From TPA_inf: Saccharomyces (taxonomy: Eukaryota), in contig BK006936.2 in the NCBI GenBank assembly GCA_000146045.2, positions 288,001 through 352,000 of the forward strand: DNA of 64,000 nt, in the 5' to 3' direction. This document shows positions 3,866 to 62,898 of this stretch, in pieces; within the stretch, counting starts at the first letter, position 1, and each line of letters starts with the position of its first letter. The notes beneath the pieces were generated by a model. The model worked only from the letters and a program-made list of their open reading frames with translations, ran no database searches and had not been told where the DNA came from. The position numbers and the translations under genes were made by a program.

Positions 3866-4876
3866 GTTTTACAGTGCTATTTATTTGATTGTTTTTACGG
3901 ATACTAGAAGTAACACAAAAAGCTAAAAAAGGCAAAATGCAATAAAAAATTAGTACTAATTATCAACTGAATACACTACTAAATACGATTTCTCGCAACG
4001 AAAGGTATGAGAGAGAAGACGTAAGTTGACTTTCACTGCATCCTTCCTTTTGGGTCATAAAATCGCTGGGATGGCCCTTGAAAAAATTTTTTCAGTGAAA
4101 AAAAAAAGAATTTTCGAGAAAAAAAAAAAATTAGGAATTGTGCGTGGTCATTCAATACGGAGAATTAAGTAACACGCAACAACTGCATTCTGCCTTAGTT
4201 GTCTCAAGGCAAATTGGCACCAACAATATGAACTTGTTGTAAAGCTCAACTCCAAAGAAGGGAAACTACTCAGATTTGTTTTCTTCAGTTTAACAGGCGT
4301 ATCTTCTGCAAATCTACTACGTTTCCTACCGAAGACTTCGCTCTACGAGAATTCTTAGGTTTCTACGAGTTACGCGCCCTTCTTCGAACGCCATTCTCAG
4401 GAAAAATTGCATTTACGTAATCTTTTGTTCTAATTGATATAATGGCTATTTATACGTAATATCATGCTTAAGAACCAAGAAAGCCAATAATGGCATTCGG
4501 AGGAAGCAATCAGTGAGGAAAATTGTTGATTAAGCTAGATATTTCTATATCTAGTAGATCTTGTCAAGTTGAAGTAGCGAATAGGACTCCTGTATTGCTA
4601 TTGTGATGTTTTTTTATTGTACAGTAGTTGTATAACTTATCGTTGGTATTAACTACCGTTTGTTTATACATCATGCTCATTATCTCGTCCTGACTAATGT
4701 GAAAGGATCGATATATACATTGAAGGGTCGACGTCCCCTTTTATTAGCTCCTACAAAGATAGCACTGGCATATATTTTTTAATGTCTTGGTATATATTAT
4801 ATAGCAACTATACTCGATGTCATAAAGAGGAATACTATCTTTGGTGGTTGTCTAACTCTGAGCAATGCTAAGGCCC

Positions 4877-18268: not shown

Positions 18269-18955
18269 TCATGGGGCTAGTCTAACGACTTTCCATGGAT
18301 CGTTTTCTGTTTTTCTTCTGTAAACGAATCTATCATGCAATCTCGAGGGTCTACCTTGCCAGAACTCAATTTCCAGTGGAACGATTCTCAAGCCACCCCA
18401 ATAATCTGGACATGGGATGTCTTCAGCATCCTTGAAACGTTCGGTGTTTTTTTGGGTCAACTCGTCTAGTTCTTCTCTGTTCTTGATAACATCCGATTGG
18501 CGGGAAGCCCATGCACCGATCTTGGATCCACGAGGTCTCGTCTTAAAGTATCTTTCAGAAGTTTCTCTGTTAACATGCTCTGTGATACCTTCAACTCTCA
18601 CCTGCCTTTGCAGATCCTTCCAAAAGAATACGATTGCCGCATTCGGGTTGGTAGCAATATCATGAGCCTTTCTAGAGGTTCCCCAGTTAGAATAAATAGT
18701 AAAACCTCTATGGTCGAGCTCCTTAAAAAGAAGAATCCTGGACGACACCCTCCCACTAGGTAGTTCCGCGGATGAAAAAGTAATTGCTTCTGGCAACGTT
18801 TCCCTTGGGTCTTCCTTGGCTTCGTTGAACCATTTGGTGAAAAGATCGATTGGGTCGTCAGTAAGTTGTTTTTCATTCAAAGTAAATTTATCATATTGAT
18901 ACGTCTCAGGAGCAAATATGATTGGCTTTTGGGTCTCCTCAGCTTGTTTAGTCAT
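18269..18955 (-). CDS. PDX3: Pyridoxine/pyridoxamine 5'-phosphate oxidase (PDX3, YBR035C)
   Basis: 228-aa ORF of the PNPOx family with the C-terminal 'RLHDRFVYRR...WKVVRLAP' signature. Confidence 0.9.
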   Translation of the reverse strand: MTKQAEETQKPIIFAPETYQYDKFTLNEKQLTDDPIDLFTKWFNEAKEDPRETLPEAITFSSAELPSGRVSSRILLFKELDHRGFTIYSNWGTSRKAHDIATNPNAAIVFFWKDLQRQVRVEGITEHVNRETSERYFKTRPRGSKIGAWASRQSDVIKNREELDELTQKNTERFKDAEDIPCPDYWGGLRIVPLEIEFWQGRPSRLHDRFVYRRKTENDPWKVVRLAP

Positions 18956-19586
18956 TTTCAGTGCAGATCCGTGAAGTGTACTACTGGTCTAGGTAGAGTA
19001 TCTTTAAAATATCTAATCATGCAAATTAGTCATTTCTTCTTTCTTATAAGTTGCGGCCCCTTCTAGTATTTACAATTTACCCGGCGCTGGTTCTGGTGGC
19101 ATCTATAAGAGCTCTATCTGGCTGCTAAGCAGACTTGCTGTTACTTGTATGTGCTGTTTATCAAGATTGGGGCATTACGCATGTGTATGTGTGAACTACA
19201 GTAGTGTTATGAAATACAGCCTGAAAGACGAAAACTTCACAACGGAACTTAAGCGGTTCAATAAACATCTATCTGCCAGCTTAGAGAGACTACCCGTGGT
19301 AGAGAAAGACACGGGCAGCCAAAAATACTGGGTGTTGTATATTTACTTGTGTTAGTTTATAAATAAATTTTATATCACTATATGTGTGGTGAAAAGGAAG
19401 AGCAATCCTGCTAAAGCTTTTATATCTAAACGCCAAAAAAATAAAAAAAAAAGGAAATGGGAGAAAAGTTTTCAGCGCGCGAACTCGCGAAAAAACTTCC
19501 TCTTTAGCAATGGTGACATATAGATCTCAAGGTTCTCAATTAAAAGACCTTCTTTGTAGCTTTTAGTGTGATTTTTCTGGTTTGAG

Positions 19587-20887
19587 AATAAAACTAGAGA
19601 GGAAGATAGGTACCCTATGAAAATGTCAATGGCTGTTGCGTTTGCTTAATCGTATTTTTTTTTTTTTCAGTCCGTGTTTTTTGTACATTCTACGTTTGAG
19701 TTTTCCATCATGCAGGCCTCAGAAATTTGGTAGGCACTCGATGGTGAAGAGATAGTGTCGGATTTCGGATTGATCTTTCAGTTGATAGCCTGCTGCTCTT
19801 TTCTTTTCCAAAGAATTTCGAGTATGCTGGTGTCAGTGTAGATGCTTGTGTGTGCGCAATTTGTGGTTTTTTATTGTGTTTCTACTTATAGATGGCTAAA
19901 ATCTGAGTTTAGAAAATGCAAACCGTAAATTCTTAAACACTGCTATTGCATTTAGTTGCTAAAGCAGTGTTTTTGAACTTATTCCTGTTATTCCTTCTTC
20001 GTACCGATCCTCTTCTCGACCTAACCTTTTAATTACCATGGGAAGCCTACCATCACCACACCCACACACAAATGTTACAGCTAATTGTTTATTAGCAAAG
20101 TTTGCACGAGTTCGCTGTTTATTTTTTTCTCGTTTTCTTATACCTAGTATTTTTTCTGACACTGTTTAAGGTGACAGAAAAAAAGGAGTTTAAGTTAGAT
20201 TTGCAAACAGACGGTGCTAAGCGCTGTCACTTTATGTCTATCTTATCGTTAACTCTGGAAAAAGAAAAAGGAAAAAGAACGTCAGGGAACATGAGTATAT
20301 ATAGAAATGGTTTATTCTAGTTTTTTCCGTTTTTTCAGTAGATTTTTGCCTTTAAAAGAATAAATCCCACTACAAAAAGGTAAAATAAAAAATCTATTCA
20401 CTGAACTTACTGATGAAATTTCCAAATGTGCCCCGTACATCGAACGATGTGACAGAGAAAAATACGAGTAGGTAAATAAGCCAAAAGGCAAGGGTGTCCT
20501 TTCTTAAGCATCGGTTAGGTTTGCGGGCGATCAGTAACTGAACAATGACACAAGATCAAGAACGTAATTTGAGATTTTTCAAGATGGTTTTTTTAGGTAT
20601 CTATTAAAACTACTTTGATGATCAATACGGTATTTTTGTCGCATTATTTTCCAAGCGGAAGGAACCGTGTGTTCATTTTATGAATCTTGGTGTTGTATTC
20701 ACAGCTACTTCTCCTAATGCCTTCGATGCATTTAGATAATTTTTGGAAACATTTTTTTTCTTGATGTATATTTTTTGTATTGTAGAAATCGCGCGTACTG
20801 TACTTGTATATCGCTTTATAAGCGCTTTTAATTGATTGTTCATGACGAGGATAGGCGGATAGGCGGAGGTATGCCTCTTAATATTTA
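19587..20887 (+). ncRNA. TLC1: Telomerase RNA template component TLC1. The mature RNA is about 1.16 kb and the poly(A)+ precursor extends to about 20887.
   Basis: The ORF-free 2.1 kb gap between PDX3 and CSG2 contains CACCACACCCACACAC at 20054-20069, the complement of yeast TG1-3 telomeric repeats and so the telomerase template. It lies about 468 nt from the presumed 5' end. The Sm site AATTTTTGG lies at 20738-20746 near the mature 3' end. The chromosomal position matches my memory of TLC1 (YNCB0010W). Confidence 0.8.
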
Positions 20888-21080
20888 TAATAAAGCCCAC
20901 CAAATGGCTTCTTCTTTTTAGAATATACAATATACAAATAAAAATAAAAAAATAGAAGAACATCCTAGTAATTGTCTTGAAAATAATCAAGATATTGATT
21001 GGGATTTTTTATTTAGGGAAACCAAATAATTGCATATGCTTGTTACATCATCATCAGTCATATAAAGTATGTTGTCCGTA

Positions 21081-22313
21081 CTAATGGTGGTATTTACCTT
21101 CCCCGAGTGTTACTGATAGGACCAACAAACTTACCGTTAGCATTATGTATCCTATGACTTCCCATCTCACAATTGTGGTTTGCGTAGGTTCGCAAACCCA
21201 CTCAGCTAACCCCATAAAGATAATAGCTCCCAGGTTGCACGTCGTCAAATACTCAGCAGGGGCCTTGCGATTCAACTCTAATATCGAAATCAAGCTCGGC
21301 AAGGAACCAAAGATAATCGAGCCTAGTAGAGAGAACCAAAAGCTCTTGTCATTATAGAACAACGAAATGGATTCCACAGACTCACGGGAGGGAAATTTAG
21401 GAATAAATGGCAAAAGTATTACCATGCCAATAATACCGATTAGGGCCATGTGGGTGCTCTGCTTAACCAAGACTACAGCAGAATTTTCGTTCTTGGAAAT
21501 GTTACTGCAAAACCAACGGTTCCATAACACGGCAAAAGGACCCATAATCAAAGCACCAAGGCCGCAAATCAGAGCACCTTTCAACCTATCAAACAAGAAT
21601 GGGTCAGAAAGTTCACCCGTGTTAGGGTTGACGGACAGCTTTCCGGCAAGCATGTCACAGGTAGCCTTCGTGTATGAGATGATCAAAATTCCAATGACCG
21701 CGTTCATCATGATGAGGAAATTACGGAAAACGTAGTTCTTCCTGGAGATTCCACAAACACCATATAGTAAAGTGACAATTTCGAAAATGGCAGTATTTTG
21801 CATCAAAGCAACATCAAATGCCGGTGACAATGACAAAGCCATGTTATAAGTCAAATCAGCGACAATCATTATGAGAGCCAGCACTGTTAGCTTAGCCACA
21901 TATTTGAAGGTAGCCACGGATATGATTTTTTGCTTCTGCTGTTGGGCTGGAATCCGTGGTTGAGGATCATCCAACACGTGCGAGAACGTATCGACATCTT
22001 CGTTTGTCACAGACCCGCTGTTGTTGTTGTCAAACTGAGAATTCCTGTTCGAGTCTGAGTCAGAGACAAACATCGGTCTCATCTTCTCCCAAAGTCGAGA
22101 TGCAGGCACCAAGAGCAGCCACGAAGCAAAATACATAAAGGTCAGATAGAAGGTTAATGAACTTGAGTTTCCGTTGTCGCCGTTAGTTTCAGGCGTTGCA
22201 ATTGTACCATTGGGCCCCACGGAGATTTCCTTTTTAGATTGTATGTTAGACAAACATTTTGTTTGAATCACGTAGCCTATTACACTTGAAAACCAAAGTA
22301 GTGTGGTAGACAT
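21081..22313 (-). CDS. CSG2: ER membrane protein required for mannosylation of inositolphosphorylceramide / Ca2+ homeostasis (CSG2, YBR036C)
   Basis: 410-aa polytopic membrane ORF with synteny. Confidence 0.8.
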   Translation of the reverse strand: MSTTLLWFSSVIGYVIQTKCLSNIQSKKEISVGPNGTIATPETNGDNGNSSSLTFYLTFMYFASWLLLVPASRLWEKMRPMFVSDSDSNRNSQFDNNNSGSVTNEDVDTFSHVLDDPQPRIPAQQQKQKIISVATFKYVAKLTVLALIMIVADLTYNMALSLSPAFDVALMQNTAIFEIVTLLYGVCGISRKNYVFRNFLIMMNAVIGILIISYTKATCDMLAGKLSVNPNTGELSDPFLFDRLKGALICGLGALIMGPFAVLWNRWFCSNISKNENSAVVLVKQSTHMALIGIIGMVILLPFIPKFPSRESVESISLFYNDKSFWFSLLGSIIFGSLPSLISILELNRKAPAEYLTTCNLGAIIFMGLAEWVCEPTQTTIVRWEVIGYIMLTVSLLVLSVTLGEGKYHH

Positions 22314-59602: not shown

Positions 59603-59686
59603 GGAGGGTTGGCCGAGTGGTCTAAGGCGGCAGACTTAAGATCTGTTGGACGGTTGTCCGCGCGAGTTCGAACCTCGCATCCTTCA
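59603..59686 (+). tRNA. tL(UAA): tRNA-Leu (anticodon UAA), intron-less with a long variable arm
   Basis: GGAGGGTTGGCCGAGTGGTCTAAGGCGGCAGACTTAAGATCTGTTGGACGGTTGTCCGCGCGAGTTCGAACCTCGCATCCTTCA. The anticodon loop is CTTAAGA, giving TAA. Confidence 0.9.
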
Positions 59687-62826: not shown

Positions 62827-62898
62827 GGTTTTATAGTGTAGTGGTTATCACTTTCGGTTTTGATCCGGACAACCCCGGTTCGAATCCGGGTAAGACCT
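62827..62898 (+). tRNA. tQ(UUG): tRNA-Gln (anticodon UUG)
   Basis: GGTTTTATAGTGTAGTGGTTATCACTTTCGGTTTTGATCCGGACAACCCCGGTTCGAATCCGGGTAAGACCT. The anticodon loop is TTTTGAT. Confidence 0.92.

Follow-up and report, generated by a model that had tools for sequence, protein, structure and literature searches.

The telomerase RNA gene TLC1 between PDX3 and CSG2 of Saccharomyces cerevisiae: reconciled coordinates, neighbouring snR161 and conserved RNA architecture

Introduction

Yeast telomeres are built of TG1-3 repeats, and the template in the telomerase RNA has the C1-3A sense. The RNA subunit of Saccharomyces cerevisiae telomerase, TLC1, was reportedly described by Singer and Gottschling in 1994, and its SGD name is presumably YNCB0010W. 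It is needed for long-term chromosome-end maintenance in yeast and serves as a leading model of large ribonucleoproteins with a flexible scaffold. An RNA of about 1.16 kb from the + strand is associated with Est2 and required for telomere maintenance (PMC7151599, PMC3384322, PMC3683933, PMC7356895). Its transcription by Pol II is Swi4/Mbp1-dependent and G1/S-regulated (PMC3683933).

Two groups of RNAs outside yeast telomerase resemble TLC1. First, vertebrate telomerase RNA (hTR) and the other members of Rfam clan CL00004 do the same job and share with TLC1 a template, a 5' boundary element, a pseudoknot with triple helix, a core-enclosing helix and a CR4/5-like three-way junction (PMC7356895, PMC7685517). 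However, hTR belongs to a different Rfam family and has 451 nt with a terminal H/ACA domain bound by dyskerin, whereas TLC1 has 1157 nt, an Sm site and arms for Ku and Est1 (PMC7356895). Second, the spliceosomal snRNAs of the Sm class are likewise Pol II transcripts with an AU5-6GR Sm site near the 3' end, an Sm ring that guards against exosome trimming and Nrd1/Nab3 sites downstream (PMC7151599, PMC3384322, PMC3675052). [quoted passage not shown]

Results and Discussion

Identification of TLC1 in the interval between PDX3 and CSG2

The window, i.e., the whole 64-kb stretch of DNA that was analyzed, contains PDX3, encoding pyridoxamine-phosphate oxidase, at 18269-18955 (-) and CSG2, convergent with TLC1, at 21081-22313 (-). 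Both were assigned by Pfam domain and by exact look-up, which returned proteins identical to the S. cerevisiae references (NP_009592.1 for CSG2). Since the flanking proteins are identical to PDX3 and CSG2 of S. cerevisiae, the window was assigned to this species. The gap between the two genes spans 18956-21080 (2125 bp), and its longest ORFs encode 59-105 aa, none exceeding 105 aa.

A covariance-model search with RF01050, the Rfam family of Saccharomyces telomerase RNA, yielded a match at 19597-20754 (+) with 1117 bits as compared to a gathering score of 80. The match was full length (model positions 1-1208 of 1208; E about 1e-277) and covered the template and the Sm site, both on the + strand. 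It is virtually certain that 19597-20753 (+) is TLC1, the RNA subunit of S. cerevisiae telomerase, at its usual locus between PDX3/snR161 and CSG2. In the model, structure, synteny and orthologue comparisons, no evidence against this identity was found.

The initial annotation, made from the letters and their ORFs, had placed TLC1 in a gap of about 2.1 kb lacking a credible ORF. Size, absence of credible ORFs and presence of TLC1 were all borne out, the last by the full-length match, the + strand, the syntenic locus and modules at their published coordinates. TLC1 is, however, not the sole content of the gap, as snR161 also lies there at 19185-19345 (-). Recovery of the gene in this way illustrates that a sequence-only reader can find a non-coding gene that is invisible to ORF tracks.

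The described TLC1 of S. cerevisiae and the gene in the window agree in locus, strand, length, template, template-boundary helix, Ku hairpin and Est1 bulged stem. They also agree in the CS3/CS4 pseudoknot strands, the three-way junction, the Sm site, the MCB/SCB boxes of the promoter, the Nab3 and Nrd1 sites and the restriction-site landmarks; no difference was detected among the features tested. Thus, the gene is TLC1 itself rather than a relative, it is already known, and nothing deviates from published TLC1. The rating of the locus as important rather than novel was upheld.

A non-functional or diverged extra copy of TLC1 was considered as a rival reading, but nothing in favor of such a pseudogene was found. 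The order PDX3-snR161-TLC1-CSG2 is common to all six related genomes described below, every functional element is intact, as are the MCB/SCB boxes of the promoter, and the 1301-nt span 19587-20887 shares 99.3-100% identity with six other S. cerevisiae assemblies. One of these was 100% identical, and two more differed by a single mismatch each. Synteny, intact elements and near-identity within the species therefore exclude a pseudogene copy, which was judged highly improbable.

Comparison with orthologous loci of other Saccharomyces

Orthologous loci were found via PDX3 proteins of other species that fell into the same 90% cluster and were then traced to their genomic loci (n = 6). They represent a paradoxus-like lineage (two Logan assemblies), S. 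mikatae, S. kudriavzevii (as the subgenome of a hybrid), S. uvarum and S. eubayanus. The gene order SCO1, CSG2, gap, PDX3 and arginine-methyltransferase gene was present in all six loci. Each gap contained a full-length telomerase RNA (972-1157 bits with Rfam) and snR161 in the same arrangement. Two MAFFT alignments were made, one with flanks (A1) and one of the mature RNA only (A2), the latter built without reference to structure.

Overall identity of the orthologues to the window was only 57-74%. Despite this divergence, the template core, the 3' strand of the boundary helix, the tip of the Ku hairpin, the pseudoknot strands and the Sm site were invariant. The orthologues (paradoxus-like, mikatae, kudriavzevii, uvarum, eubayanus) thus resemble the gene in the window in synteny, modules and covarying helices, but differ from it by their limited identity and by large indels in the arms.

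When the Rfam consensus structure was mapped onto the window sequence, the RNA of the window was recovered base for base. Of 179 consensus pairs, 171 were canonical or wobble pairs. When the consensus was applied to A2, 90.6% of the cells paired as compared to 40-43% when the 3' partners were slid by 1-3 columns, and 25 pairs had changed on both sides as compared to 4-11 in the slid versions; the observed values were reached in 0 of 500 shuffles. As the Rfam model derives from sequences of the same genus, this covariation confirms the published structure models and is not a blind test. The compensatory changes were located in the long-range helices of the terminal arm, the core-enclosing helix, the template-boundary helix, the Est1 arm and the three-way junction.

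The alignments also bear on the short ORFs of the gap (59-105 aa; e.g., 20673-20990 (-) and 20102-20320 (+)), one of which might have a real product, so that the conservation would stem from coding. Such ORFs do exist in the S. cerevisiae sequence, and in a single assembly (L010) a 67-aa ORF of this region had been called by one gene caller. However, no ORF was kept in the orthologues, where stop-free reading in the aligned segments mostly extended over 28-56 aa at most. Of 181 indel runs, no more than 28 had a length divisible by three, and conservation tracked RNA helices with compensatory changes. Protein-coding short ORFs were rejected on the grounds that they are not preserved in orthologues and that the indels are mostly not multiples of three; their coding was considered exceedingly improbable. 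The ORF annotated in L010, an S. cerevisiae assembly from ENA, lies at 4652-4855 (+) inside TLC1, corresponding to 19959-20162 (-) of the window, and is a spurious protein call.

Gene ends in two numbering systems

Two coordinate systems, offset by 10 nt, exist for TLC1, and both were checked against the sequence. In the older '+1-1301' numbering, the template is at 468-484, the Ku element at 288-335, the Est1 bulge at 660-664, the Sm site at 1153-1160 and a BclI site at 1033 (PMC4800423). With 19587 as origin, each of these landmarks fell on the expected bases; therefore, 19587-20887 (+) coincides exactly with the 1301-nt span conventionally given for the gene.

The second system counts from the mapped major 5' end. 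Counted in this way, the Sm site occupies 1143-1150, downstream of an NsiI site at +1130, and the mature RNA terminates at +1157/1158; then come a T of the Nab3 site (+1165), a G of the Nrd1 site (+1186) and, at +1242, the first poly(A) site (PMC3384322, PMC7151599). Upstream, snR161 extends from -252 to -412, the MCB boxes lie near -108 and -120, and TATA-like boxes lie near -75, -171 and -221 (PMC3683933). The landmarks that could be checked in the sequence (NsiI, Sm, Nab3 T and Nrd1 G) fit the origin 19597, while none fits 19587, and snR161 at -252 to -412 was consistent with 19597 as well. Since the mapped-end landmarks fit this origin and the RF01050 match starts there too, the major 5' end was assigned to 19597. 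[quoted passage not shown] The RF01050 match and the published landmarks place the mature, non-polyadenylated RNA of 1157 nt at 19597-20753 (+). In addition, minor initiation at several positions within a stretch of about 70 nt has been described (PMC3683933).

The landmarks of two independent numbering systems were thus all found on the expected bases (PMC3384322, PMC7151599, PMC3683933, PMC4800423). Mixing the systems leads to apparent contradictions, such as an Sm site at 1153-1160 vs. 1143-1150 or a template starting at 468 vs. 458.

The initial annotation had counted back from a template at nucleotide 468 or so to a 5' end near 19587. As conventional numbering, this stands; as the 5' end of the mature RNA, 19587 was rejected, since no mapped-start landmark fits it and the major 5' end is 10 nt downstream, and it was kept as the origin of the old numbering. 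The mature 3' end, which had been put near 20750, was refined to 20753/20754 by counting the published +1157/+1158 from 19597. The proposed end of the poly(A)+ precursor near 20887 did not hold: this position is an annotation limit and not a mapped RNA end, and the mapped poly(A) sites are about 40-50 nt upstream. For annotation, the value of the analysis lies in the reconciled coordinates, i.e., the conventional span 19587-20887, the mature RNA 19597-20753 and the poly(A) site at about 20838, plus snR161.

Promoter region and the divergent snoRNA gene snR161

The promoter enhancer known as element E (-85 to -144; function from PMC3683933) corresponds to 19453-19512 (+). Within it, MCB2 (GCGCGA) and the MCB1/SCB motif (TCGCGAAA), in which the MCB1 and SCB boxes overlap, were located at 19477-19482 (+) and 19485-19492 (+), respectively. 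MCB and SCB boxes are bound by Mbp1 and Swi4 (PMC3683933). In the alignment, the block TTTTC..CG.G...TCGC.AAAAA of element E was conserved in all six species. A proximal TATA-like sequence, TATAGA, was present at 19519-19524 (+), about -75 from the start site; this box is weak and redundant (PMC3683933). Judging from the literature, Pol II would start mainly at 19597, driven by the MCB/SCB enhancer about 110-120 nt upstream.

The H/ACA snoRNA gene snR161 was matched at full length by Rfam RF01237 (19185-19345 (-), 166 bits) and was conserved in 6 of 6 related genomes. It is divergent from TLC1, the 5' ends being 251 bp apart, and the promoter region is common to both. An ACA box was found 3 nt from the 3' end. 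A quick regular-expression search for an H box, confined to nt 61-100, found none; in view of the full-length match with 166 bits and the ACA box, the identity was regarded as sufficiently established. On the opposite strand, snR161 is overlapped by a 68-aa ORF, 19149-19355 (+), for which Pfam gave no hit. The Rfam scan of the whole window also returned three unrelated tRNA genes elsewhere, at 38792-38865 (-), 59603-59686 (+) and 62827-62898 (+).

Template and template-boundary helix

The 16-nt tract CACCACACCCACACAC had been named in the initial annotation as the template at 20054-20069, and there it was found, on the + strand and as the single occurrence in the 64-kb window. Even with one mismatch allowed, only about 0.01 chance matches are expected. 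Together with the following A, the template CACCACACCCACACACA (17 nt; reverse complement TGTGTGTGGGTGTGGTG) extends to 20070, i.e., 20054-20070 (+), equivalent to 468-484 in the old numbering, and is unique in the window. The core ACCACACCCACACA was invariant in six species, and the full 17-mer was present in five of the six.

The template is preceded by the 8-bp template-boundary helix, formed according to the Rfam consensus by UGGUAGGC at 19728-19735 and GCCUACCA at 20045-20052 (+), which also closes the base of the Ku arm. All 8 pairs are canonical, and the helix stops 1 nt 5' of the template. Across species, this helix (helix 10) showed six invariant pairs and one compensatory pair, with 95.8% of the cells paired. 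Its 3' strand and the template core, CTACCAT-ACCACACCCACACA, were invariant in six species. In the working model drawn from the literature, Est2 (TERT) would bind the core and copy part of the template repeatedly onto chromosome 3' ends, yielding TG1-3 repeats (PMC7356895, PMC7685517), and the boundary helix would halt copying past the template.

The Sm-like motif AATTTTTGG lies at 20738-20746 (+), where it had been expected, and the distance from the template is 684 nt from start to start, in keeping with the anticipated 685 nt or so. This 9-mer has 5 matches in the window vs. 3 expected, which is not significant on its own, so the motif counts only in context. The lack of enrichment in this AT-rich window is what could be cited for regarding the C1-3A tract as a chance or relic interstitial telomere-like repeat, with a coincidental Sm-like motif and no RNA gene. 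Against this, the 16-mer is unique, not expected by chance and located inside a full-length covariance-model match of 1117 bits; moreover, the tract is invariant in six species amid diverging surroundings and is flanked by covarying helices. Model match, conservation and covariation exclude a chance or relic tract, and its probability was rated as vanishingly small.

Core and arms of the RNA

The predicted architecture is a core consisting of the template, the boundary helix, the pseudoknot strands and the core-enclosing helix, with Ku, Est1 and terminal arms; it is conserved and covarying. The core-enclosing helix, so named because it sits between the pseudoknot and the template-boundary helix (PMC7685517), was placed by the Rfam consensus at 19709-19722 / 20401-20412 (+) with 11 pairs, 10 of them canonical. 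Across species, 92% of its cells (helix 9) were paired, and 3 pairs had changed on both sides.

The putative pseudoknot/triple-helix region was assigned to 20303-20398 (+) from Rfam consensus helices, within CS3-CS4 (20305-20439). It includes a hairpin at 20303-20310 / 20327-20334 (+) and a U-rich/A-rich stem at 20337-20346 / 20389-20398 (+). Folding by minimum free energy (MFE) recovered the nested stems with z = -1.57, which is not unusually stable. All 10 pairs of helix 22 in this region remained unchanged across the six species. The same holds for the strands of the pseudoknot, TTTTTCAGTAGATTTT and AAAAATCTATTCA-TGAACTTA, whose invariance leaves no covariation signal.

The Ku arm spans 19728-20052 (+), its base being closed by the 8-bp template-boundary helix. 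The putative Ku-binding stem-loop was located at 19873-19920 (+) as the Rfam hairpin of nt 277-324, while the old numbering +288-335 translates to 19874-19921. In its tip helix (helix 14), 7 of 8 pairs were invariant. MFE folding gave the same hairpin, although with z = -1.0 it is not unusually stable; its support comes from conservation and coordinates and not from folding energy. In the basal helices 12-13 of the arm, only 39-52% of the cells paired in the MAFFT alignment, probably owing to misalignment in a fast-evolving stretch.

The bulged stem of the Est1 arm module was found at 20185-20256 (+), matching the Rfam helices of nt 589-660; its bulge, UCGUU, occupies 20246-20250 (+), i.e., +660-664 in the old numbering. 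Its helices (17-19) had 93-100% of the cells paired and 4 pairs changed on both sides, the stem GGAGTTT/AACTCT was invariant across six species, and MFE folding reproduced the bulged stem (z = -2.86). Est1 binds at the bulged stem, and Pop1/6/7 bind the region just distal (PMC4800423, PMC7356895). In the proposed working of the RNA, Ku, Est1 and Pop1/6/7 would be tethered on flexible arms for recruitment and stability (PMC7356895, PMC7685517).

The terminal arm bears the Sm site and a CR4/5-like three-way junction at 20549-20697 (+; Rfam helices at nt 953-1101). The helices 25-27 of the junction had 96-100% of the cells paired, with 3 compensatory pairs in helix 27. Its MFE fold had z = -5.0, none of 200 shuffles being as stable.

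Of the structural elements anticipated in the initial annotation, three could be located: the boundary helix, ending 1 nt before the template; the Ku hairpin, at its published coordinates, refolded by MFE and with an invariant tip; and the Est1 bulged stem, with its bulge at the published position and covarying helices. Of the predicted pseudoknot, both conserved strands and the nested stems are present and invariant.

Several lineage-specific indels were observed in the arms. S. uvarum and S. eubayanus carry a 17-nt insertion in the Ku hairpin loop (A2 columns about 312-328), which is absent from S. cerevisiae, and a 19-nt insertion in the terminal arm (A2 columns about 974-992). S. cerevisiae lacks a 25-nt segment of the hairpin loop of the three-way junction (window 20639-20655) that was kept in the other five. 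As far as can be read from the alignment, the arm indels are consistent with the flexible-scaffold view of fast-evolving arms.

Sm site, 3' extension and the flank shared with CSG2

The Sm7-binding site AUUUUUGG was found at 20739-20746 (+), i.e., nt 1143-1150, 7 nt upstream of the mature 3' end. It fits the AU5-6GR form close to the mature 3' end, the RF01050 match ending at 20754, and TTTTTGGAA was invariant in six species. The Sm site stabilizes TLC1 RNA and sets its mature 3' end (PMC7151599). With positions computed from origin 19597, the 3' extension and terminator comprise 20752-20847 (+). This region contains a T8 run (20752-20759), the Nab3 site UCUU (20759-20762), a T6 run (20771-20776) and the Nrd1 site GUAG (20782-20785), all on the + strand, the roles of the Nab3 and Nrd1 sites being taken from the literature (PMC3384322, PMC7151599, PMC12146844). 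Farther downstream follow the first poly(A) site (+1242) and position 20847 (+1251), where the published poly(A)+ model ends, both likewise on the + strand and taken from the literature.

The formation of the 3' end is debated. Termination by Nrd1-Nab3-Sen1 has been proposed (PMC3384322), as opposed to cleavage/polyadenylation at several poly(A) signals (PMC12146844), with Nrd1-Nab3 acting in surveillance in the latter view (PMC12146844). According to the literature, the transcript would be processed at its 3' side in 20754-20850, a region of poly(A) signals with the Nrd1/Nab3 sites among them, and an Sm ring on AUUUUUGG would block 3'-to-5' trimming at +1157 (PMC7151599). In one model, a hairpin of the 3' extension presents the Sm site in an internal loop (cited in PMC7151599). 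When 20716-20847 was folded alone and tested for such a hairpin, z was +1.16 and the ensemble was diffuse, which speaks neither for nor against this model.

A strongly conserved block was observed at about 20899-20942, just outside the conventional span of TLC1; relative to CSG2 on the other strand, it lies about 140-180 nt downstream of the stop codon. Its core TTAGAATATACA-TAT at 20918-20933 was the same in six species except for one base. The 3' region of TLC1 is known to have multiple PAS motifs and a terminator common to CSG2 (PMC12146844). The block is probably the poly(A) signal of CSG2 and/or a distal poly(A) signal of TLC1 in the shared terminator; alternatively, it may simply be the CSG2 poly(A) signal. 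That it is a dedicated element of both convergent genes, be it a bidirectional terminator or a distal fail-safe poly(A) signal for quality control of the TLC1 precursor, appears rather unlikely. A shared element of this sort, if true, would refine the published model (PMC12146844) and would not constitute a new kind of element.
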